Shown: positions 1 through 7,139 of the stretch, piece by piece | How the letters are laid out: every line of letters begins with the position of its first letter | Numbering within the stretch: position 1 is the first letter of the stretch | IMG/VR virus record: IMGVR_UViG_2541047945_000012 | Source: a virus | Taxonomy: Duplodnaviria; Heunggongvirae; Uroviricota; Caudoviricetes | DNA: 7,139 nucleotides | Direction: 5' to 3' (one strand) | Notes under the pieces: model-generated | The model's database searches: none | What the model saw: only the letters and a program-made list of their open reading frames with translations | What the model was told of the DNA's origin: nothing | Made by a program: the position numbers and the translations under genes

Positions 1-516
1 ATGAAATTTAAAAAATGTCTTCTGCCTGTGGCAATGTTAGCGTCATTCACTCTGGCAGGATGCCAGTCAAATGCTGACGATCATGCTGCCGATGTTTATC
101 AAACCGATCAACTGAATACCAAACAAGAAACTAAAACCGTTAATATTATTTCCATTCTTCCCGCAAAAGTTGCCGTAGACAACTCCCAAAATAAACGGAA
201 CGCACAAGCCTTCGGCGCGCTTATTGGCGCAGTCGCTGGCGGTGTTATCGGCCACAACGTCGGGTCTGGCAGCAATTCCGGAACGACGGCAGGTGCAGTT
301 GGCGGCGGAGCTGTAGGCGCGGCAGCGGGTTCTATGGTGAATGATAAAACCTTAGTGGAAGGTGTTTCTTTAACCTATAAGGAAGGCACCAAAGTGTATA
401 CCTCTACCCAGGTGGGTAAAGAGTGCCAGTTTACGACAGGTTTAGCCGTTGTTATTACCACGACGTATAACGAAACGCGTATTCAGCCAAATACCAAATG
501 TCCTGAAAAGAGCTAA
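1..516 (+). CDS. yfgH: Outer-membrane lipoprotein with a glycine-zipper (YcfJ / 17-kDa-antigen-like) segment; YfgH-like
   Basis: ATG at 1, stop at 514-516, 171 aa. Lipoprotein signal peptide MKFKKCLLPVAMLASFTLAG-C with lipobox LAGC and Gln at +2. Gly/Ala-rich block GALIGAVAGGVIGHNVGSGSNSGTTAGAVGGGAVGAAAG resembles glycine-zipper lipoproteins. Symbol is from my recollection of E. coli yfgH-yfgI-guaA synteny and protein size, not from a search. Upstream signals lie outside the window. Confidence 0.8.
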   Translation: MKFKKCLLPVAMLASFTLAGCQSNADDHAADVYQTDQLNTKQETKTVNIISILPAKVAVDNSQNKRNAQAFGALIGAVAGGVIGHNVGSGSNSGTTAGAVGGGAVGAAAGSMVNDKTLVEGVSLTYKEGTKVYTSTQVGKECQFTTGLAVVITTTYNETRIQPNTKCPEKS

Positions 517-531
517 TAATCAGGAGGAGTC

Positions 532-1071
532 ATGAAGAAAGTTTTTCTTTGCGCCATCTTAGCCTCCTTAAGCTATCCGGCTATCGCCTCATCATTGCAG
601 GATCAACTCTCTGCTGTCGCAGAAGCGGAACAGCAAGGTAAAAATGAAGAGCAAAGGCAGCATGACGAATGGGTCGCGGAGCGCAACAGGGAAATCCAGC
701 AAGAGAAGCAACGTCGCGCAAATGCCCAGGCCGCCGCTAACAAAAGAGCGGCAACGGCAGCGGCAAATAAGAAAGCTCGTCAGGATAAACTGGACGCCGA
801 AGCCTCTGCGGACAAAAAACGCGATCAAAGTTATGAAGATGAGCTACGCAGCTTAGAGATTCAGAAACAAAAACTGGCGCTGGCGAAAGAAGAAGCCCGC
901 GTTAAGCGAGAAAACGAATTTATCGATCAGGAACTGAAGCACAAAGCTGCGCAAACCGATGTGGTGCAATCTGAAGCTGACGCCAACAGAAATATGACTG
1001 AAGGCGGTCGCGATCTGATGAAAAGCGTGGGCAAAGCAGAAGAGAACAAATCGGACAGCTGGTTTAATTAA
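532..1071 (+). CDS. yfgI: Secreted Ala/Lys/Glu/Gln-rich coiled-coil periplasmic protein (TolA-domain-II-like composition); YfgI-like
   Basis: SD AGGAGGAG at 521-528, ATG at 532, TAA at 1069-1071, 179 aa. Sec-type signal peptide MKKVFLCAILASLSYPAIA-SS. Mature part is strongly charged and low-complexity (AANKRAATAAANKKARQDKLDAEA...). Symbol is tentative, from recalled synteny and size only. Confidence 0.8.
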   Translation: MKKVFLCAILASLSYPAIASSLQDQLSAVAEAEQQGKNEEQRQHDEWVAERNREIQQEKQRRANAQAAANKRAATAAANKKARQDKLDAEASADKKRDQSYEDELRSLEIQKQKLALAKEEARVKRENEFIDQELKHKAAQTDVVQSEADANRNMTEGGRDLMKSVGKAEENKSDSWFN

Positions 1072-1110
1072 TCGATGTTAGTAACTTCAATCCTATAATT
1101 CTTGAAGATA

Positions 1111-1142
1111 AAAAACCCTCTGTAGTAACAGAGGGTTTTGTT
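1111..1142. terminator. Bidirectional rho-independent terminator
   Basis: Perfect 8-bp stem CCCTCTGT (1116-1123) / ACAGAGGG (1128-1135) with 4-nt loop AGTA, flanked by A5 (1111-1115) and T4 plus GTT (1136-1142). It lies 40 bp after the yfgI-like stop and between the convergent gene sets. Confidence 0.75.
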
Positions 1143-1163
1143 CATTCATAGTGCAGGGTCAAA

Positions 1164-1181
1164 TCATTCCCACTCAATTAT
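1164..1181 (-). other. guaA: Orphan 3'-terminal codons of guaA (GMP synthase), I-I-E-W-E-stop; candidate displaced att-side fragment
   Basis: Minus-strand codons ATA ATT GAG TGG GAA TGA (1181..1164), preceded in frame by TAA (1184..1182). GMP synthases end in ...TIEWE (recalled, not searched). Position and convergent orientation relative to the yfgI-like gene match recalled E. coli K-12 synteny. Only 4-5 codons long, so the call is weak taken alone. Confidence 0.4.
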
Positions 1182-1207
1182 TTACGACAATCATAACTAA
1201 TTGAGTG
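1171..1207. repeat. Perfect 10-bp inverted repeat CACTCAATTA / TAATTGAGTG with 17-bp spacer, overlapping the guaA terminal codons
   Basis: 1171-1180 cactcaatta and 1198-1207 taattgagtg are exact reverse complements. Located at the inferred host/prophage boundary. Confidence 0.6.
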
Positions 1208-1288
1208 ATAACATTTTTCCAAAACTTCATTTTTCTAGTACCGTTTTATATACCGTCACCGGAAATCAGTACCATGAAAAATGCCATG

Positions 1289-1771
1289 CTATCTGGTCAG
1301 GGTGTCGTATTGTTTTTCGCAGACTCTTCCGGCTTCGGCTGCCCGGTCAGCATACTCTGCCAGTTGTCTGTTTCTCTCGAGAGATTTGCTGAGCACGTCG
1401 GCAAGCAAAACTCCGGTGTCTGCGGCTGACGTCCCAGCGCCGACAATGGCGTTATACTGCCTGAGCTGCTCACGGATGGCAAAGAGTTGTTGCTGCAACC
1501 GGCCAGCGCGAGCGGCAGCATCAAGAGCATCATTGCGCGCCTGGTCGATCCTCTGCTGCGCTTCACGTTCATTGATCGATTTCTCCTGTTCGTAGTGCTG
1601 ACGAACTATCTCATCTTCAGCTTTGCGGTCTTCCTTCGCCTGCGCATACCCGGCATCGTACTGACGACTGCCGTGTGCATTCCAGGCTACAACTCCTGAT
1701 ATGACCAGAACAGCAAGCATCGCCATGATAACCAACTGTTTCCAGTATGCTTTTGCGAATGCCCAGATCAT
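1289..1771 (-). CDS. Rz-like i-spanin (inner-membrane spanin subunit)
   Basis: ATG at 1771..1769 overlaps the endolysin stop (ATGA, 1768-1771); SD AGGTG 8 nt upstream; TAG at 1291..1289; 160 aa. N-terminal TM ([21 protein letters not shown]) followed by a charged, Gln/Arg/Glu/Ala-rich predicted coiled coil and a C-terminal Cys. Classic position after the endolysin. Confidence 0.85.
1297..1572 (-). CDS. Rz1-like o-spanin (outer-membrane lipoprotein), fully embedded in the +1 frame of Rz
   Basis: ATG at 1572..1570 with SD AGGAGA 9 nt upstream; 91 aa. Signal peptide [26 protein letters not shown] with lipobox LAGC. Mature part about 65 aa, Pro-rich (8 Pro) with two Cys. Stops 8 nt before the Rz stop. 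Confidence 0.8.
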   Translation of the reverse strand: MNVKRSRGSTRRAMMLLMLPLALAGCSNNSLPSVSSSGSITPLSALGRQPQTPEFCLPTCSANLSRETDNWQSMLTGQPKPEESAKNNTTP

Positions 1772-2397
1772 ACCGCCAGCACCTTACTGGCAGTTATGTA
1801 TCGCGCGCGCCGGTCATCAATGCCGTTCCGGCCACCATTGATAAGCAGAGTTACACGTGCAATATCTCCGGTATACTTCATGCAGCCTTTGCTGGAGAAG
1901 AACCACGCCGCGCTACGAGCCGCGTATTCGTCCTGCGCCAGCAGTTCAGGACTCTCCAGCAGGTCAACCTTAAGACCGTTTCCACAGTCACGATAGTTAT
2001 TCAAACCGGTAATCTGGATAAGTCCGCGCCCACGGTAGTTCCAGCCGTCACCAGGGGCATTGTTCCCCATGCGTTTGCTGTACACCAGATTGGCGATCGC
2101 TCGCTGGCGCTCGAGTGGCAATGGTGGCTCACCAGCACGTCGCCCCAGTGCATTAGCCTGCCCCTGAGTGAGACGCCCAGCCCGAACGAAGTTAGCCAGT
2201 CCGCTGACGCTGTAGTTGAAATTCTCCTGCAACCGGGTGAAGCCCACAGACTCATGCCCGACCTGAGCAATAAACATTGCCAGATCTTCTGGTTTGCTGA
2301 TACCAAACTCTTTCATCGCAGAAGTTATATGCGAGAACCAGCGTGCGGCCAGCGCCTCGCTAATACCAGCAGCTCGCTGGAATTGTTTAATCTCCAT
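1768..2397 (-). CDS. Endolysin, glycoside hydrolase family 19 (chitinase-fold lysozyme), cytoplasmic (no signal or SAR segment)
   Basis: ATG at 2397..2395 with SD GAGG 8 nt upstream; TGA at 1770..1768; 209 aa ([13 protein letters not shown]...). The ORF-track start at 2562 is an upstream extension without an RBS. Contains GH19-type catalytic motifs [10 protein letters not shown] and GRGLIQITG (compare plant chitinase HETG and RGPIQ(I/L)S motifs, from memory). Confidence 0.85.
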
Positions 2398-2695
2398 GTT
2401 TAGACCTCGATATTTTGAAAATCTGAACAACGTTACCGCGTGTTTTAATAACCGCGGCAAGCATGACAGCGTTGATAATGACCTCAGATAAATCCACAGC
2501 CATTGGCGTGCGTAACCAGATTGCATAAGCGACACGAACTGGAATGCTGGCCGCAGCAACAATCAGGAAATAAGCAAGCCACCCACCCCATCGCCTGTGT
2601 TGAGAACCGTTTCTCCGAAATGTGGCAACTCGAACTGCTATACCGGCGCAAATAACCGCATTGGTGATAAGCAAAAAAAGCTCATGAGTTACCAT
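2387..2695 (-). CDS. Small membrane protein between holin and endolysin (2-3 TM; candidate antiholin, second holin or lysis regulator)
   Basis: ATG at 2695..2693 with SD GGGGAG 8 nt upstream; TAA at 2389..2387; 102 aa. Overlaps the holin 3' end by 14 bp and the endolysin start by 11 bp, suggesting translational coupling. TM1 [16 protein letters not shown], a highly basic loop ([15 protein letters not shown]), TM2 [22 protein letters not shown], and a possible short third hydrophobic segment. Confidence 0.7.
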
Positions 2696-3086
2696 CGTCT
2701 TTTCTCCCCGGAATTAACTCGCGTGGATTATCGGAACGGTGATAGAGCCAGATCCCAATTCGCACAGCGACGATTGCTGACACAAATGCACCGGCAGAGA
2801 AAACAATCCCTTTCTCGAAAGAATCCTGTGTGATTGTAGGGATCAGGCTGGCTATGCCGATAAGAATTGATGCTGCTGGTTTGTAGAATAGAAGTCCGCA
2901 GAGAAAGCTAAGCATCGACAAGAGCACGCGACGACGAATGGGATACTCTACCGCAGAGGTAACAAAAATCACCGCCCCAGCCAAAGACCCCAAAGCAACC
3001 TCAGGAGGAACTCCTGCTATCACTGCCGCCAAAGAACTCATGCTAAGCCACTGATTTAAAGTTTCACTGGTTAGTTGAGCTGACAT
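2682..3086 (-). CDS. Holin, class-I-like (three TM segments, charged C-terminal tail)
   Basis: ATG at 3086..3084 (MSAQLTSETLNQW...), preceded by GGTGG with a 5-nt spacer; an in-frame GTG at 3095 is the ORF-track start. TGA at 2684..2682; about 134 aa. Three hydrophobic segments (LAAVIAGVPPEVALGSLAGAVIFV; VLLSMLSFLCGLLFY...ILIGIASLI; IVFSAGAFVSAIVAVRIGIWLY) and a charged tail [19 protein letters not shown]. First gene of the lysis cluster. Confidence 0.75.
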   Translation of the reverse strand: MSAQLTSETLNQWLSMSSLAAVIAGVPPEVALGSLAGAVIFVTSAVEYPIRRRVLLSMLSFLCGLLFYKPAASILIGIASLIPTITQDSFEKGIVFSAGAFVSAIVAVRIGIWLYHRSDNPRELIPGRKDDGNS

Positions 3087-3143
3087 GTTTTCCACCGTTT
3101 ATATGCATAACTACCTCCTGAACAGTAAAGCATTACGCATGAT

Positions 3144-3159
3144 AAACCATTTATGGTTT
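3144..3159. promoter_or_regulatory. Perfect 16-bp palindrome AAACCAT-TT-ATGGTTT just downstream of the putative promoter (candidate operator or 5'-UTR hairpin)
   Basis: 7-bp arms are exact reverse complements with a 2-bp centre. Starts about 12 bp downstream of the -10 hexamer, so it overlaps the predicted transcription start region of the lysis operon. Confidence 0.45.
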
Positions 3160-3170
3160 TTTGTTACCCA

Positions 3171-3199
3171 ATATTACCAATCCAATTCGCGATGGTCAA
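3171..3199 (-). promoter_or_regulatory. Candidate sigma70 promoter for the lysis operon: TTGACC - 17 nt - TAATAT, with TGn extended -10
   Basis: On the minus strand, -35 TTGACC (3199..3194), 17-nt spacer, -10 TAATAT (3176..3171) preceded by TGG. AT-rich upstream. Predicted start near 3164, about 78 nt upstream of the holin ATG. Confidence 0.45.
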
Positions 3200-3451
3200 A
3201 ACATATCCACAGCGGTAAGTTTGAGTGTTTTCATTTCCAAAACTTTATACAATAATATATGCAGTCTGTTATTTTTACGCACAATAAAAACACGATACCA
3301 GCTATTTCGCCATAAATACAATTTCCTTTAATGCTGCCAACAGTGCCTGCAAAACATATAACAGAACACATAAATAACAGGCATAATATAGATTTAATAA
3401 TCCAAGTGCATATAAATATCATTTAAGAAGTTAAGATCATTATTATAATAA

Positions 3452-3483
3452 CAATAACCCCGCTGTTTTATTCGGGGTTATTG
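3452..3483. terminator. Hairpin terminator downstream of the tail fibre gene
   Basis: Stem AACCCCG (3456-3462) / CGGGGTT (3473-3479), extendable to 11 bp, with a 10-nt loop. On the minus strand it is followed by a U-rich tract (TTATTATAATA). It begins 10 bp after the tail fibre stop (3493-3495). Confidence 0.5.
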
Positions 3484-3492
3484 CATTTATTA

Positions 3493-4029
3493 TTACATTG
3501 ACATTAATATAAACATGGCTAATTCGTCATAACGAATTCCGTAGCGTCCTCCTGCTTTTTTTACAAGAATCATATCTCCTGTTTTATATTGAGAATAAAT
3601 TTTCTCACCTGTATCAGGATCTGTGCTCTCTTCAGTTATCACCTCTTCATCCCATACGTCAGGCCATTCATCGTAACACCAAAAAGCATATTGCTCAGGG
3701 TTTAAACCATGCTTTCTAAGAATATCCCCTACGGTTTGAGCGCCAACGCCAAAATGATACCTGGACGACTCAATTCCTTTGTGATTAATTGAGTCATTAA
3801 ATTTAAATTTATAGATGACTGACTTTATTTCAATAGCGGCATCACGCTCTGCATTAAGAATATCATATCTTGTTTTAAGAGTTTCATCTGACGTATTGAT
3901 TGACCCGGTTCCTGCATAGATAACAGAGCATCTGTTTGATGGCTGTCCAATAGCTTTAACATTATCATCAACAGGAGCTATTTTATTAGCATCTGCCAAC
4001 CACCAGTCTGTTCCATCAGCGTGACCGAT
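3493..4029 (-). pseudogene. Tail fibre/tailspike gene, C-terminal fragment (distal to the IS2 insertion) including an intramolecular-chaperone-like domain
   Basis: In frame with fragment 5361-6914 once IS2 and one copy of the 5-bp duplication are removed. TAA at 3495..3493. Encodes ...GHADGTDWWLADANKIAPVDD...SINTSDETLKTRYDIL...GGRYGIRYDELAMFILMSM. The first 9 codons of ORF-track entry 3493..4056 are IS2-derived. Confidence 0.8.
4025..4029. repeat. IS2 target-site duplication, copy 1 (CCGAT)
   Basis: ccgat immediately flanks the IS2 end at 4030; identical to 5361-5365. Confidence 0.85.
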
Positions 4030-4040
4030 TGGATTTGCCC

Positions 4041-4946
4041 CTATATTTCCAGACATCTGTTATCACTTAACCCATTACAAGCCCGCTGCCGCAGATATTC
4101 CCGTGGCGAGCGATAACCCAGCGCACTATGCGGATGCCATTCGTTATAATGCTCGAACGCCTCTGCAAGGTTCTTTGCTGCCGTTAACCCGTCTGGTTTG
4201 GGCATGATACTGATGTAGTCACGCTTTATCGTTTTCACGAAGCTCTCTGCTATTCCGTTACTCTCCGGACTCCGCACCGCCGTGTTCTTCGGTTCAAGTC
4301 CCAACATCCGGGCGAACTGGCGTGTTTCATTAGCCCGGTAGCATGAACCATTATCCGTCAGCCACTCCACTGGAGACGACGGAAGATCGTTGCCGAAGCG
4401 GCGTTCCACCGCTCCCAGCATGACGTCCTGTACTGTTTCACTGTTGAAGCCGCCGGTAGTGACCGCCCAGTGCAGTGCCTCACGATCACAGCAGTCCAGC
4501 GCGAACGTGACACGCAGTCTCTCTCCGTTATCACAGCAGAACTCGAACCCGTCAGAGCACCATCGCTGATTGCTTTCTTTCACGGCCACTCTGCCTGTAT
4601 GTGCCCGTTTCGATGGCGGTACAGCAGGTTTTCGCTCAAGCAACAGCGCATTCTGGCGCATGATCCGGTAAACACGTTTGGCATTGATCGCAGGCATACC
4701 ATCAAGTTCTGCCTGTCTGCGAAGCAGCGCCCATACCCGACGATAACCATACGTTGGCAGCTCTCCGATAACATGGTGTATACGGAGAAGCACATCCGTA
4801 TCATCAGTGTGACGACTGCGGCGGCCATCCATCCAGTCATCGGTTCGTCTGAGAATGACGTGCAACTGCGCACGCGACACCCGGAGACAACGGCTGACTA
4901 AGCTTACTCCCCATCCCCGGGCAATAAGGGCGCGTGCGCTATCCAC
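4041..4946 (-). CDS. insD: IS2 transposase OrfB (InsD; DDE catalytic domain), normally made as an OrfAB fusion by -1 frameshift
   Basis: 301-aa [37 protein letters not shown]...[11 protein letters not shown], recognised as IS2 InsD. Overlaps insC in the -1 frame at the A6G site. Confidence 0.9.
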
Positions 4947-5269
4947 TTTTTTGCCCGTCCATATTCAACGGCTTCTTTGAGGAGTTCATTTTCCATCGTT
5001 TTCTTGCCGAGCAGGCGCTGGAGTTCTTTAATCTGCTTCATGGCGGCAGCAAGTTCAGAGGCAGGAACAACCTGTTCTCCGGCGGCGACAGCAGTAAGAC
5101 TTCCTTCCTGGTATTGCTTACGCCAGAGAAATAACTGGCTGGCTGCTACACCATGTTGCCGGGCAACGAGGGAGACCGTCATCCCCGGTTCAAAGCTCTG
5201 CTGAACAATTGCGATCTTTTCCTGTGTGGTACGCCGTCTGCGTTTCTCCGGCCCTAAGACATCAATCAT
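4904..5269 (-). CDS. insC: IS2 OrfA (InsC; helix-turn-helix DNA-binding/regulatory protein)
   Basis: ATG at 5269..5267 with SD GGAG 5 nt upstream; 121 aa [41 protein letters not shown]... The ORF-track start at 5314 is an upstream extension. Confidence 0.9.
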
Positions 5270-5360
5270 CTGTTCTCCAATGACTAGTCTAAAAACTAGT
5301 ATTAAGACTATCACTTATTTAAGTGATATTGGTTGTCTGGAGATTCAGGGGGCCAGTCTA

Positions 5361-5365
5361 CCGAT
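5361..5365. repeat. IS2 target-site duplication, copy 2 (CCGAT)
   Basis: ccgat immediately after the IS2 end at 5360; identical to 4025-4029. Confidence 0.85.
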
Positions 5366-6914
5366 TCTTACTCTTATCCCACTTCTAATATTTAAACTTC
5401 CAGTATTACTCTGTAAATTACAATCTCCTGAAGTTGGTCCAAGCAGTACAGTTTTACCAACACCACATACTACTCTGGCATTTCCTTTTTGTGATACGAG
5501 TCTTGACTCACCTCCTGACTGCTCAGGAAGAGATTTATGGTCTACAAATGCATCGCGGGGGTTAAATACACCGTCTCCAGAATTATATCTTCCTCCTGTA
5601 TAGTTGTTAAATACAGGACCCCAGTCAACGCCATTGCCTTCAGAGCACCCGACCATTCTAAGCACTCGAGTATTCCCTGCTGCATATGGTAATGAGCTTG
5701 TTGATTGCCTGGAAGCTATCATACGTGCTCCATAACCAATAGCATTACCACCATTTATAGTTACATATGCTGGCTGGCTTTCGAAATATGTACTGTAAAA
5801 GTTCATATTTCCACAGTCATGTAGATGAATAAGAACATCATCCCATCCCTGAATGGTTCCTGCATGTACCTGTACACCGCGAACTGGTTCCCCTGAAACC
5901 TCCATACACTCTGATGGCCGGCTGAATGGCTGAGACAGGTATTGCGATGTGGCAAGCAGATGTGTGTGGTGATACAGGCTGGTAATGTAGCAATCGAAAA
6001 ATTGCGTTCCCGCCATACCAAAGTTATCTATGTCATTTCGCCGTATAGTAGAACCTACTGTTGCCTCAGAAGCGTTAGACACTCCAGTAAATACTAACTT
6101 ATCACCGGATACGGATAATCCTGAATAAGTGAAATTCCTGCCTCCCGATCTTAAAACCCCGGACGTTTCGAAGGTGTGGCTTGATGACCATGGGATTTCG
6201 ATAGTGCTGGACGTTACCGCTGTAATTCGGAATACATCATGGGCGCGGATCGAAACACCCTTGAATCCCTGGAATCTACAGTGATAATAGTTTTCATCCT
6301 CGCCCTGAGCGGCCAGCGTGCCAGATACAGGAATGTTCGTTTTTAAAAGTGCCGTCTTGCGCCAGTATCCAACCACCTGCAAATTGCGGTATTCATTGCC
6401 AAAAGACGCACGTGACCAAATACCTACATCCCACTCATCGCCAAGACCGGTATTTGCAATGTCTTTATAACCATCCAGCCCATTGAAATATGGAACAATA
6501 CGAAAGTTCTCAAGGCGAACACATCCTGTCTCTGGCATCAATATTGCGGCAGAGAATGGTTTAAGCGTGGCTCTTGTAGCCCCATTAGCATCACCGTTAG
6601 TAAAATCCAATAAATCATATGATGACGCAGGTGCCGTTGTTGTATACGGGTCTTCGGAAGATGGATTAGAAACCACACCACCACTAACATCCATATTAGA
6701 AACACAATCTACAGTATATTTTTTATTTCCTACACCGTACATCAGGAATGTGGTCCCTGTGGTAATATCAGGAGCAAATGTTGCAGTATATCCAGAGACC
6801 CATTTGCCCACACCAAGACCAATTATCCCACCACCAGAAACAGGTGTTAACGTATCCGTTATTACATACGCATTATCAGTACCATAAATAACCTTTCCTG
6901 TGTTAATGGCAGCT
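5361..6914 (-). pseudogene. Tail fibre/tailspike gene, central fragment between the IS3-family element and IS2; 5' end missing
   Basis: Open frame of about 517 codons running from the IS3-family terminus (6915) to the IS2 terminus. Gly/Ser/Thr/Asn/Tyr-rich, as in receptor-binding fibre or spike bodies. No credible start codon or RBS inside the fragment, so the N-terminal part must lie beyond the IS element. Codons 1-61 of the 584-aa ORF-track entry are out-of-frame readthrough of the IS transposase. Confidence 0.7.
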
Positions 6915-7139
6915 TGAACCGCCCCGGGTTTCCTGGAGAGTATTTTATCTGTGAACTCAGGCTGCCAGATCATCGTTTCCGATGGAAGCATAATAAGCTT
7001 TTTCTGCTTCTGCCGGAGGAGTATGGCCCAGCCTTTCCAGCAATCGTCGATTGTTATACCAGTCCACCCACGTGAGTGTGGCCAGTTCCACTTCTGCACG
7101 GTTTTTCCAGCTCTTACGGTGTATTACCTCCGCTTTGTA
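6915..7139 (-). mobile_element. IS3-family insertion sequence (IS629/IS1203-like), partial; right end only, continuing beyond the window
   Basis: Terminal sequence on the plus strand from 6915: TGAACCGCCCCGGGTTTCCTGGAGAGTATTTTATCTGTGAACTCAGG, the TG...-type IS3-family end that I recall for IS629. It is followed by the transposase OrfB C-terminus. Exact IS identity not verified. Confidence 0.7.
6957..7139 (-). CDS. IS3-family transposase OrfB, C-terminal 60 codons (5'-truncated by window edge)
   Basis: Minus-strand translation ...YKAEVIHRKSWKNRAEVELATLTWVDWYNNRRLLERLGHTPPAEAEKAYYASIGNDDLAA-stop, with TGA at 6959..6957. This is a typical C-terminal tail of an IS3-family DDE transposase. Confidence 0.75.
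   Translation of the reverse strand, partial: YKAEVIHRKSWKNRAEVELATLTWVDWYNNRRLLERLGHTPPAEAEKAYYASIGNDDLAA

Follow-up and report, generated by a model that had tools for sequence, protein, structure and literature searches.

Does the host keep a working lysis cassette of a prophage whose tail fibre gene decays, or do intact lysis genes next to a broken tail fibre gene simply belong to an ordinary prophage that was damaged recently? The question is raised by a stretch of 7,139 nucleotides (the window, IMG/VR record IMGVR_UViG_2541047945_000012), for which a sequence-only reading had described a complete lysis module at a prophage terminus. Gene content, comparison with relatives and the attachment junction point, with a probability of about 0.93, to a complete and ordinary five-gene lysis module of a common Escherichia coli prophage of the epsilon15/phiV10 type (genus Uetakevirus). 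The module had been identified correctly, is of an already known type and shows nothing unusual in its layout.

Five full-length lysis genes

Five tightly overlapping lysis genes, each of full length, occupy positions 1289-3086 on the minus strand of the window:

2682-3086, minus strand: PF16931 holin-family gene, ATG start at 3086
2387-2695, minus strand: PF05449 holin-family gene
1768-2397, minus strand: GH19 endolysin gene
1289-1771, minus strand: Rz gene
1297-1572, minus strand: Rz1 gene, within Rz in the +1 frame

The two holin-family genes overlap by 14 nt (ATGGTAACTCATGA), the PF05449 gene and the endolysin gene by 11 nt (ATGGAGATTAA) and the endolysin gene and Rz by 4 nt (ATGA), which bears out the overlaps of ATGA type or of 11-14 bp claimed for these junctions; identical overlaps of 14, 11 and 4 nt are present in phiV10 and epsilon15. 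A purine-rich Shine-Dalgarno-like motif, likewise claimed for each gene, can be read ahead of all five starts (GGTGGA at 4 nt, GGGGAG at 8, GAGG at 7, AAGGTG at 8 and AGGAGA at 9). Pfam and PHROG matches of all five proteins were above curated thresholds or had very strong scores, and the HMM searches that had been proposed as a check recovered GH19, the holin families and the spanin pair. Alignment of the lysis proteins to their homologues revealed no frameshift or truncation. An NCBIfam search returned nothing useful for any lysis protein or for a 63-aa open reading frame of the spacer upstream. The description of holin, small membrane protein, GH19 endolysin and Rz/Rz1 as complete and intact is in agreement with these results.

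Two details have to be corrected. The module had been given as 1289-3095; the genes are located as described, but translation of the first one begins at ATG 3086, and position 3095 belongs to a GTG that lies in frame three codons before it. This GTG was rejected as the true start of the first holin gene since the homologue records of phiV10 and epsilon15 use the ATG, and a lambda-like dual start at GTG 3095/ATG 3086 was rejected as well, the extra residues M-E-N being without positive charge. The gene of the ‘small membrane protein’ does exist, but its product is itself of a holin family and is the one that phage records label ‘holin’.

Relatives of the module

The closest relative considered here is a prophage of strain EC21Z-151 (NZ_CP101197.1), apparently intact and located at the same guaA site, whose cassette is 99.83% identical at the DNA level with four identical proteins. 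It shares the site, the tail fibre allele, the spacer and the cassette with the window, and its 991-aa tail fibre gene is uninterrupted. Closely matching prophages are also present in the strains EC21Z-144, SBF22, HS4, E22 and YDC107. Compared with Uetakevirus phages, phiv142-3 among them, the cassette is 82-96% identical (1,798 nt, 0-2 gaps), ranging from 82.3% for epsilon15 to 95.7% for YDC107_2.

phiV10 (PhiV10p27-p30a; 89% nucleotide identity) and epsilon15 (gp23-gp26/Rz1; 82%) share all five genes, their order and their lengths (405, 309, 630, 483 and 276 nt) with the window, as well as Rz1 in Rz, the end of the cassette about 110 nt from the same 17-bp core and int across attP. Differences are found upstream. 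In both phages the accessory slot between tail fibre and cassette is filled by O-antigen conversion genes (oac; gp21/gp22) of the opposite strand, whereas in the window it is an unannotated, AT-rich spacer, and the tail fibre allele of the window differs from theirs and is interrupted by two insertion sequences (IS).

With the S-R-Rz/Rz1 cassette of lambda the module shares the logic of holin, soluble endolysin and two-component spanin, with Rz1 in the +1 frame of Rz. The holin families are, however, unrelated, and lambda has a dual-start S gene in place of the two holin-family genes of the window. Moreover, the lambda endolysin is a transglycosylase and not a GH19 enzyme, its spanin family differs from the Bcep176 group to which we assign the spanins of the window (PMC6139136), and its cassette is located next to cos instead of attP.

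Two neighbouring holin-family proteins

The product of the first gene (2682-3086) is a Phage_holin_8 protein of 134 aa that has 3-4 hydrophobic segments and ends in a charged C-terminus (RKDDGNS). It matches PF16931 (E 1.5e-11; 44.9 bits against a cut-off of 26.4) and the holin family PHROG 198 (E 2e-41), is identical to the EC21Z-151 protein in 134/134 residues and is the counterpart of gp23, a ‘membrane protein’ in the epsilon15 and phiV10 records. The second product (2387-2695), a Phage_holin_3_7 protein of 102 aa, has three hydrophobic segments and a basic C-terminus (KISRSKHGD); it matches PF05449 above the cut-off (E 5e-27) and PHROG 217 holin (E 9e-35), is likewise identical to its EC21Z-151 counterpart (102/102) and is labelled ‘holin’ in the phiV10 and epsilon15 records. 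The marks of a canonical holin were found, i.e. recognised holin families, at least one transmembrane domain, a charged C-terminus and a gene adjoining that of the endolysin. Database labels for the two Uetakevirus proteins are inconsistent (‘holin’, ‘membrane protein’, ‘putative holin’), and literature searches found no experimental work that separates their holin and antiholin roles in Uetakevirus.

Endolysin and spanins

The endolysin (1768-2397) has 209 aa and is predicted to be soluble; neither a signal nor a signal-anchor-release (SAR) segment is present and the hydropathy maximum is 0.69 (17-residue windows). It matched PF00182 with 36.9 bits (cut-off 25.5), PHROG 181 (E 6e-90), the SPN1S endolysin (PDB 4OK7; E 6e-115, residues 1-208) and the Pseudomonas aeruginosa enzyme PaGH19Lys (PDB 9EOI; E 7e-33). 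Both solved proteins belong to the same GH19 fold family and are matched over the full length, the former with about 82% identity. The SPN1S endolysin was crystallised as a soluble protein. The catalytic pair is kept as Glu49/Glu58 and aligns with E51/E60 of PaGH19Lys, from whose study the GH19 catalytic residues were assigned (PMC12329726). PaGH19Lys resides in a domesticated pyocin cluster, unlike the cassette of the window.

Rz (1289-1771) is an i-spanin of 160 aa in which a charged periplasmic domain follows an N-terminal membrane helix, the single hydrophobic segment (about residues 8-30, extending to 34; hydropathy peak 2.91). It matches PF10721/DUF2514 (E 1.5e-42) and the Rz-like spanin family PHROG 312 (E 2e-59) and is identical to the EC21Z-151 protein in 160/160 and to that of phiV10 in 149/160 residues. 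The gene of the o-spanin Rz1 (1297-1572; 91 aa) lies entirely within Rz (+1 frame) and covers the stretch from 0.41 to 0.98 of the Rz length, a position in the range typical of embedded Rz1 genes (PMC6139136). The Rz1 protein has the lipobox LALAGC with Cys26 and two more cysteines in the mature part, matches PHROG 11621 (E 1.6e-40) and is identical in 91/91 residues to EC21Z-151 and in 87/91 to phiV10 Rz1. The spanins of epsilon15, phiV10, SPN1S and TL-2011b have been catalogued in the embedded ‘Bcep176’ family (Kongari et al. 2018, PMC6139136), and by its predicted architecture Rz/Rz1 of the window is an embedded two-component spanin of this family.

Attachment junction and gene order

Three features separate the host gene yfgI from the Rz stop codon:

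1112-1139, no strand assigned: host bidirectional terminator hairpin found by a terminator scan (12-pair stem), between yfgI and the guaA-side att core
1162-1178, minus strand: 17-bp att core AATCATTCCCACTCAAT, the int-distal prophage junction
1179-1288, minus strand: attP arm on the phage side, from the core to the Rz stop codon

The core, placed exactly at 1162-1178, does not differ from the attP/attB core published for phiV10, epsilon15 and vB_EcoP_ZX5 (PMC9782041); its reverse complement, ATTGAGTGGGAATGATT, contains the TGA stop of guaA and makes up the 3' end of this gene. In the alignments, similarity to phages begins exactly at the core and the divergence of host and phage switches there; the empty site of K-12 matches positions 1100-1178 of the window under guaA. 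According to these alignments, the prophage is integrated in an E. coli chromosome (assembly GCA_000461395.1) at the guaA 3' end and has yfgI as its neighbour. The module is indeed the last phage unit before the junction: phage structural genes were looked for past the yfgI-like gene, and beyond yfgH-yfgI only the host genes yfgG, pdeF, ppx and ppk are present. The hairpin at 1112-1139 is host DNA, contiguous with the empty site in K-12, and would also end transcripts of the lysis cassette in the prophage state.

In the attP arm a block of 49 bp (1240-1288) is invariant in all phages compared and contains an arm-type site for integrase, ATACCGTCAC, at 1250-1259; in the record of epsilon15, binding sites for integrase and IHF are annotated in the corresponding arm. 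Rfam and tRNA scans of the window gave no matches, so the att site is not of the tRNA type. The lysis-side junction is carried by about 10% of complete E. coli genomes (537/5,426).

The terminal position had been noted as unlike lambda and P22. The map does differ, but it is not unusual, being the canonical map of Uetakevirus: tail fibre, variable accessory slot, PF16931 protein, PF05449 protein, GH19 endolysin, Rz/Rz1, attP and integrase. This order was compared in the annotated maps of phiV10, epsilon15, EC.W1-9 and YDC107_2 and in the EC21Z-151 prophage; the window covers the tail fibre, the att core and what lies between them. Across the genus (epsilon15, phiV10, SPN1S, TL-2011b, ZX5 and phiv142-3) the cassette adjoins attP and int, which is why the lysis genes are always found at one prophage end: recombination at the 17-bp core would split the circular genome between Rz and int.

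Leader and transcription signals

Two features lie between the tail fibre gene and the first holin gene:

3087-3183, minus strand: conserved leader and putative promoter region ahead of the first holin gene
3451-3484, minus strand: strong hairpin with a 12-bp stem (AATAACCCCG.../...CGGGGTTATT), just past the tail fibre stop codon

The cassette had been described as immediately downstream of the tail fibre gene. It is downstream, but a spacer of 406 bp (31.5% GC) that includes the strong terminator hairpin lies between the two. The hairpin has a predicted RNA folding energy of -20.1 kcal/mol (z = -5.7; 0/200 shuffles as stable) and a terminator is annotated at the equivalent place on the epsilon15 map; it is probably the terminator that separates the tail fibre gene from the lysis cassette.

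The leader is shared with free-living phages and is conserved in 64 E. coli genomes as well as in phiv142-3, EC.W1-9 and HEMP4. It contains the palindrome AACCATTTATGGTT at 3145-3158 and a stem-loop at 3103-3140 that buries an AGGAGG motif together with an upstream ATG; at the corresponding position, the record of epsilon15 has an annotated RNase III site. The consensus fold of this stem-loop has two compensatory pairs, and its single-sequence stability is no better than that of shuffled sequences (z = +0.59). A promoter scan of the region found no strong constitutive promoter. Sigma-70-like matches were weak (9/12), with 11 sites against 6.1 ± 2.1 in shuffles, among them a weak promoter-like match, GTAACA-17-TATCAT, at 3139-3167. 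Another promoter-like site, TTGACC-17-TAATAT at 3171-3199, was discarded because the stretch of leader shared with other Uetakeviruses does not include its -35 half.

Judged from the hairpin after the tail fibre gene and from the conserved leader, the cassette forms a separate transcription unit, so that it need not be silenced by the two IS in the tail fibre gene. One could still imagine a silent relic in which all genes are open while the cassette is dead, either by loss of an activator or of late regulation elsewhere in the prophage, most of which lies outside the available sequence, or by the endolysin substitution G51V, two residues from Glu49. The lack of a strong constitutive promoter in the scan and the confinement of G51V to the lineage of the window among the phages compared would fit such a state. 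The same allele is, however, present in the apparently intact EC21Z-151 prophage, and several other strains carry prophages that match closely. Since other solved GH19 endolysins have S, R or G at position 51, G51V was rejected as an inactivating change; the cassette also retains both catalytic glutamates, every start codon and every Shine-Dalgarno-like motif. We consider a dead cassette very unlikely and return to the ordinary, intact module as the preferred reading.

Interrupted tail fibre gene and the question of host retention

Upstream of the spacer the window contains the following pieces of the tail fibre gene and of two IS elements:

3493-4029, minus strand: C-terminal tail fibre/tailspike piece (codons ~813-991) including the S74 intramolecular-chaperone domain
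4030-5360, minus strand: element of 1,331 bp inside the tail fibre gene, presumably IS2, with the transposase domains HTH_Tnp_1 and rve
5366-6914, minus strand: middle tail fibre piece (PHROG 33794/1171), 99.6% identical to EC21Z-151
6915-7139, no strand assigned: end of a second IS3-family element with inverted repeats TGAACCGCCCCGGG

The C-terminal piece matches PF13884, PF12219 and PHROG 1171 tail spike (E 3e-84) and is 99.8% identical to the EC21Z-151 tail fibre. We take the first element to be IS2 from its length, its ends and its InsC/InsD-like products; it is flanked by a 5-bp target duplication, CCGAT (4025-4029 and 5361-5365). The second element has 1,435 bp in the source contig, where it extends to the window-equivalent position 8349, has a GCT duplication of 3 bp and is followed by the N-terminal piece of the tail fibre gene. 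Excision of both elements in silico yielded an open tail fibre gene of 991 codons with 8 nt differences from EC21Z-151. The gene, previously called destroyed, is disrupted by two IS with target duplications but otherwise preserved, and the recovery of the intact frame indicates that the damage is recent.

This result bears on the suggestion that a functional cassette may be retained by the host beside a destroyed tail fibre gene. Under domestication, selection would maintain the lysis genes of a crippled prophage for the host's own use, for instance in altruistic or explosive lysis by which DNA, vesicles or toxins are set free. Perfect lysis frames beside a tail fibre gene interrupted twice, a cassette with its own leader insulated by a terminator, and the use of an endolysin of the same GH19 fold, that of the pyocin-cluster Hol/Lys, for such lysis in P. 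aeruginosa (PMC12329726) would all fit domestication. A domesticated cassette is expected to be kept while other phage genes decay or are lost; in the present case the tail fibre gene was hit only by two recent IS, and further phage genes continue past the window in the source contig (about 6.5 kb of prophage are seen there). Apart from the IS, the tail fibre gene is 99.7% identical to the intact allele and the cassette 99.8% to the intact prophage, i.e. both are equally preserved and there was no time for differential decay; the prophage is 99.5-99.8% identical to that of EC21Z-151, the host flank 98.4-98.6%. The cassette proteins match those of the apparently complete EC21Z-151 prophage (four identical, the endolysin in 208/209 residues). 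Finally, the integrase end was found in 551 and the lysis end in 537 of 5,426 complete E. coli genomes; since the former is as common as the latter, lysis-only remnants are not enriched. A selective retention is thus unsupported and, in our view, highly improbable. With IS hits so recent, intact lysis genes say nothing on selective retention, and on these comparisons their intactness reflects the recency of the hits, not retention by the host. It is equally hard to believe that this IS-crippled prophage, unable to form infectious particles any more but equipped with a terminator-insulated lysis unit, might be exploitable by the host as an inducible self-lysis device in the manner of the P. aeruginosa pyocin-cluster Hol/Lys. 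A more modest version of this reading has the two neighbouring holin-family proteins form an uncharacterised two-component holin/antiholin pair.

Proposed working of the cassette

On the basis of the protein families, we assume that after induction both holin-family proteins would accumulate in the inner membrane and permeabilise it at a set time, one of them as the hole-former and the other probably as a partner or antiholin that sets the timing. The soluble GH19 endolysin could then enter the periplasm and cut the glycan strands of peptidoglycan by means of Glu49/Glu58, and a complex of Rz in the inner membrane and the outer-membrane lipoprotein Rz1 would subsequently disrupt the outer membrane. 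A pinholin that depolarises the membrane and thereby frees a membrane-tethered SAR endolysin has a practically negligible probability: two small holin-family genes of different families do precede the endolysin gene and hole size is not assignable to holin families from sequence alone, but the endolysin lacks an N-terminal hydrophobic or SAR segment (maximum 0.69) and aligns from residue 1 with the soluble SPN1S endolysin.

Significance

The exact prophage boundary and the prophage family are now fixed, and the terminal place of the lysis genes is explained. Beyond a correct annotation the finding carries little weight. The contrast of intact lysis genes and broken tail fibre goes back to two very recent IS hits and is no sign of domestication. 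The intact copy of two neighbouring holin-family proteins could be used to dissect which Uetakevirus protein is the actual holin. In practice, induction of such a strain would likely still end in cell lysis, but the particles set free would lack fibres and be non-infectious.

Gene content and identity of the lysis cassette

Gene content was taken from an ORF listing and from direct reading of the sequence over the whole window. Beyond the terminator that follows two host genes, the minus strand holds all genes and IS pieces.

Features of the window
1-516, plus strand: yfgH, glycine-zipper lipoprotein, host gene (profile assignment)
532-1071, plus strand: yfgI, DUF5384, host gene (profile assignment)
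1112-1139: hairpin terminator after yfgI (terminator scan)
110 nt from the attachment core to the Rz stop codon: phage arm of attP
1240-1288: invariant non-coding block, 49 bp, directly past the Rz stop codon
1289-1771, minus strand: Rz (Pfam, PHROGs)
1297-1572, minus strand: Rz1, within Rz, +1 frame (PHROGs)
1768-2397, minus strand: endolysin, 209 aa (Pfam, PHROGs)
2387-2695, minus strand: membrane protein, 102 aa (Pfam, PHROGs)
2682-3086, minus strand: membrane protein, 134 aa (Pfam, PHROGs)
between the 134-aa gene and the tail fibre gene: spacer, 406 bp, 31.5% GC
3493-4029 and 5366-6914, minus strand: pieces of the tail fibre gene
4030-5360, minus strand: element interrupting the tail fibre gene, which we take to be IS2 from its length, ends and InsC/InsD-like products
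6915 to the window end at 7139 (continuing to window-equivalent 8349 in the source contig KE702418.1): second IS3-family element in the tail fibre gene

The sequence-only reading had proposed a complete lysis module at 1289-3095, and the protein families bear this out. The 134-aa protein is a Phage_holin_8 (44.9 bits, cut-off 26.4), the 102-aa protein a Phage_holin_3_7 (E 5e-27), the endolysin a Glyco_hydro_19 (36.9 bits, cut-off 25.5) and Rz a DUF2514 protein (E 1.5e-42), all by Pfam. PHROGs labels both membrane proteins as holins, the 209-aa protein as an endolysin, and Rz and Rz1 each as an Rz-like spanin (E 1e-35 to 1e-90). The gene described only as a small membrane protein beside the holin does encode a membrane protein, but one that belongs to a holin family itself. 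The first start codon is most likely ATG at 3086 and not GTG at 3095. Junction overlaps of 14, 11 and 4 nt and a purine-rich, Shine-Dalgarno-like motif upstream of every start codon were read directly, as previously described; with these and the family assignments, the lysis-module observation is confirmed.

That the lysis genes are intact was likewise upheld by comparison with homologues. Gene and protein lengths and the overlaps equal those of phiV10 and epsilon15, and relative to the prophage of EC21Z-151 (NZ_CP101197.1) four of the five proteins are 100% identical, the endolysin matching at 208 of 209 residues. Over all 1,798 nt the cassette gives gap-free alignments with EC21Z-151 (99.83%), YDC107_2 (95.7%), phiv142-3 and EC.W1-9 (93.7-93.8%) and phiV10 (89.2%). 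Endolysin residues 1-208 match the crystallised SPN1S endolysin 4OK7 (E 6e-115), and Glu49 and Glu58, the counterparts of the catalytic residues E51/E60 of PaGH19Lys (PMC12329726), are kept. Two residues past Glu49, a G51V exchange (codon at 2245-2247) was seen among the translated sequences in the window and EC21Z-151 only, with glycine in phiV10, epsilon15, SPN1S, phiv142-3, EC.W1-9 and YDC107_2. It is unlikely to matter, because this position is S, R or G across other solved GH19 endolysins.

Phage affiliation and position of the cassette

Megablast of window 1072-3500 against phage genomes matched 59 records. Salmonella phages epsilon15 and SPN1S and Escherichia phages YDC107_2, phiv142-3, HEMP4, EC.W1-9, TL-2011b, ZX5 and phiV10 are among the best of them, largely members of the genus Uetakevirus and close relatives. 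On their annotated maps, phiV10 and epsilon15 run from the tail fibre through oppositely oriented O-antigen conversion genes to gp23 ('membrane protein') and gp24 ('holin'), the counterparts of the 134-aa and 102-aa proteins, then endolysin, Rz with embedded Rz1, the attP region and integrase. Because these maps place the cassette beside attP, such a position is, by gene order, the standard Uetakevirus layout, and integration necessarily puts the cassette at the int-distal junction, with no further phage unit between the two. The terminal position had been noted as unlike lambda and P22; it does differ from both, but the oddity arises only through that comparison. At the same site EC21Z-151 carries yfgH-yfgI, then the cassette, the same spacer and a tail fibre gene that encodes 991 aa without interruption; its prophage is apparently complete. 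By every testable sequence feature the module belongs with the lysis cassettes of Uetakevirus: its identification was right, and nothing in it is new.

Proposed mechanism of lysis

A hydrophobic N-terminus is lacking in the endolysin (maximum hydropathy 0.69); it would therefore have to leave the cytoplasm through a hole-forming holin rather than by the pinholin/SAR route. Encoded before it are the two holin-family proteins, which show about 3-4 and 3 hydrophobic segments; presumably one acts as holin and the second as its partner or as an antiholin. Their database labels conflict, and no experimental assignment of holin versus partner was found in the literature searched. Rz has a single N-terminal membrane helix, while Rz1 carries the lipobox LALAGC and spans 0.41-0.98 of the Rz length in the +1 frame, an embedded geometry typical according to Kongari et al., whose 'Bcep176' spanin family includes epsilon15, phiV10, SPN1S and TL-2011b (PMC6139136). 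The predicted working logic is that of lambda S-R-Rz/Rz1, whereas the holins are unrelated, the endolysin is a GH19 enzyme and the spanins belong to another family.

Spacer and leader

The cassette lies downstream of the tail fibre gene, as had been stated, although not immediately so: the spacer intervenes, with a strong hairpin past the tail fibre gene (-20.1 kcal/mol, z = -5.7). Together with the leader at 3087-3183 (about 90 nt), this hairpin suggests that the cassette is transcribed separately; promoter matches were weak in a promoter scan. Many Uetakevirus prophages share the leader, which is conserved in several phages and in 64 complete E. coli genomes. The leader contains a perfect palindrome, AACCATTTATGGTT (3145-3158), and a putative stem-loop (3103-3140). 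Enclosed in the stem-loop are an AGGAGG motif, which is strong, and an upstream ATG (3108-3106), the start of a short out-of-frame ORF of varying length among phages. At the equivalent place the epsilon15 record annotates an RNase III site. Two base pairs of the stem-loop show compensatory change, in effect between two lineages, and it is no more stable than shuffled sequence.

In epsilon15, phiV10 and the F2_407_2_2 prophage the lysis leader is preceded by a sequence closely resembling the epsilon15 repressor operator ATTACC-N5-GGTAAT; in epsilon15 and phiV10 it lies about 110-130 nt before the gp23-type start. In epsilon15 it reads TTTACCATATGGGTAAT, where the record has no operator annotation; the window version, CTTACCGCTGTGGATAT (3203-3219), is weaker. 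Through this candidate operator the lysis or conversion region might be under direct repressor control.

The slot between tail fibre and cassette holds the conversion genes oac, gp21/22 and gtrA in phiV10, epsilon15 and other prophages and an unannotated spacer here (3184-3492, about 31% GC); no more than 11 complete E. coli genomes have the entire spacer. A candidate 63-codon, Cys-rich and very hydrophobic ORF within it (3231-3422, minus strand) gave no family match and varies little in the sequences available.

Tail fibre interruption and age of the prophage

A chimeric 187-aa ORF led to the source contig, KE702418.1 (GCA_000461395.1); the window is an exact sub-sequence of it, and the regions beyond were read there. 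The tail fibre gene had been described as destroyed. It is interrupted, but by two simple insertions: IS2 (1,331 bp, target duplication CCGAT) and the second element (1,435 bp, IS629-like ends with inverted repeats TGAACCGCCCCGGG, target duplication GCT). Excision of both in silico yields a 2,976-nt open frame, an intact 991-codon gene differing from that of EC21Z-151 by 8 nt and 2 aa. That two different IS elements struck one tail fibre gene may be a coincidence, if the gene is dispensable, or may reflect selection against its expression. Phage genes continue past the window in the usual order: a gp19-like gene is followed by Bro-N and then by the first part of a 1,129-aa protein, located where the map has a large virion protein.

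Identity to EC21Z-151 is 99.83% for the cassette and 99.6-99.8% for the tail fibre pieces, against only 98.4-98.6% for the host flank; this makes the prophage young and the IS insertions more recent still. Over window-equivalent -6507 to 9718 the prophages are 99.5-99.8% and the flanking chromosomes 98.4-98.6% identical, which suggests that the same prophage was recently acquired or exchanged in separate events.

One reading alone would be novel: that the cassette serves the host for self-lysis, as in the pyocin cluster of P. aeruginosa. The data do not support it, and we consider it very improbable. The earlier suggestion that the host retains a functional cassette while the tail fibre decays is likewise not supported as a selective effect: apart from the insertions the tail fibre is equally well kept, the phage genes go on, and among 5,426 complete E. 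coli genomes, about 10% of which carry Uetakevirus-type prophages at guaA, 537 have the yfgI junction with the cassette versus 551 with the integrase arm, so that lysis-only relics are not enriched. The intact lysis genes call for no special explanation.

Attachment site and attP arms

The attP core of phiV10, epsilon15 and ZX5 is attgagtgggaatgatt, and attB lies at the 3' end of guaA (vB_EcoP_ZX5 paper, PMC9782041). Its reverse complement lies at window 1162-1178, and phage similarity in megablast starts exactly at 1162. An alignment with five phages shows identity rightwards from the core and divergence leftwards, where the phages carry their int-side arm; window 1100-1178 is contiguous in K-12 and most other E. 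coli and annotated as the guaA end. The attachment junction predicted earlier is thereby substantiated.

On the phage arm, the 49-bp block is unchanged in all compared phages, including epsilon15, in which the coding regions are only 82% identical; by this comparison the attP arm is more tightly constrained than the genes. Within the block, ATACCGTCAC (1250-1259) is an integrase binding site or arm-type site by the epsilon15 annotation.

In the phages, the int-side arm of attP has nearly the same hairpin as the host yfgI/guaA terminator, AAAAACCCTCTGT..ACAGAGGGTT (window 1105-1139 compared with phiV10 5924-5956, epsilon15 5926-5955 and, in the further compared sequence L008, about 3925-3955). 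After integration guaA would thus keep a terminator downstream, one provided by the phage.
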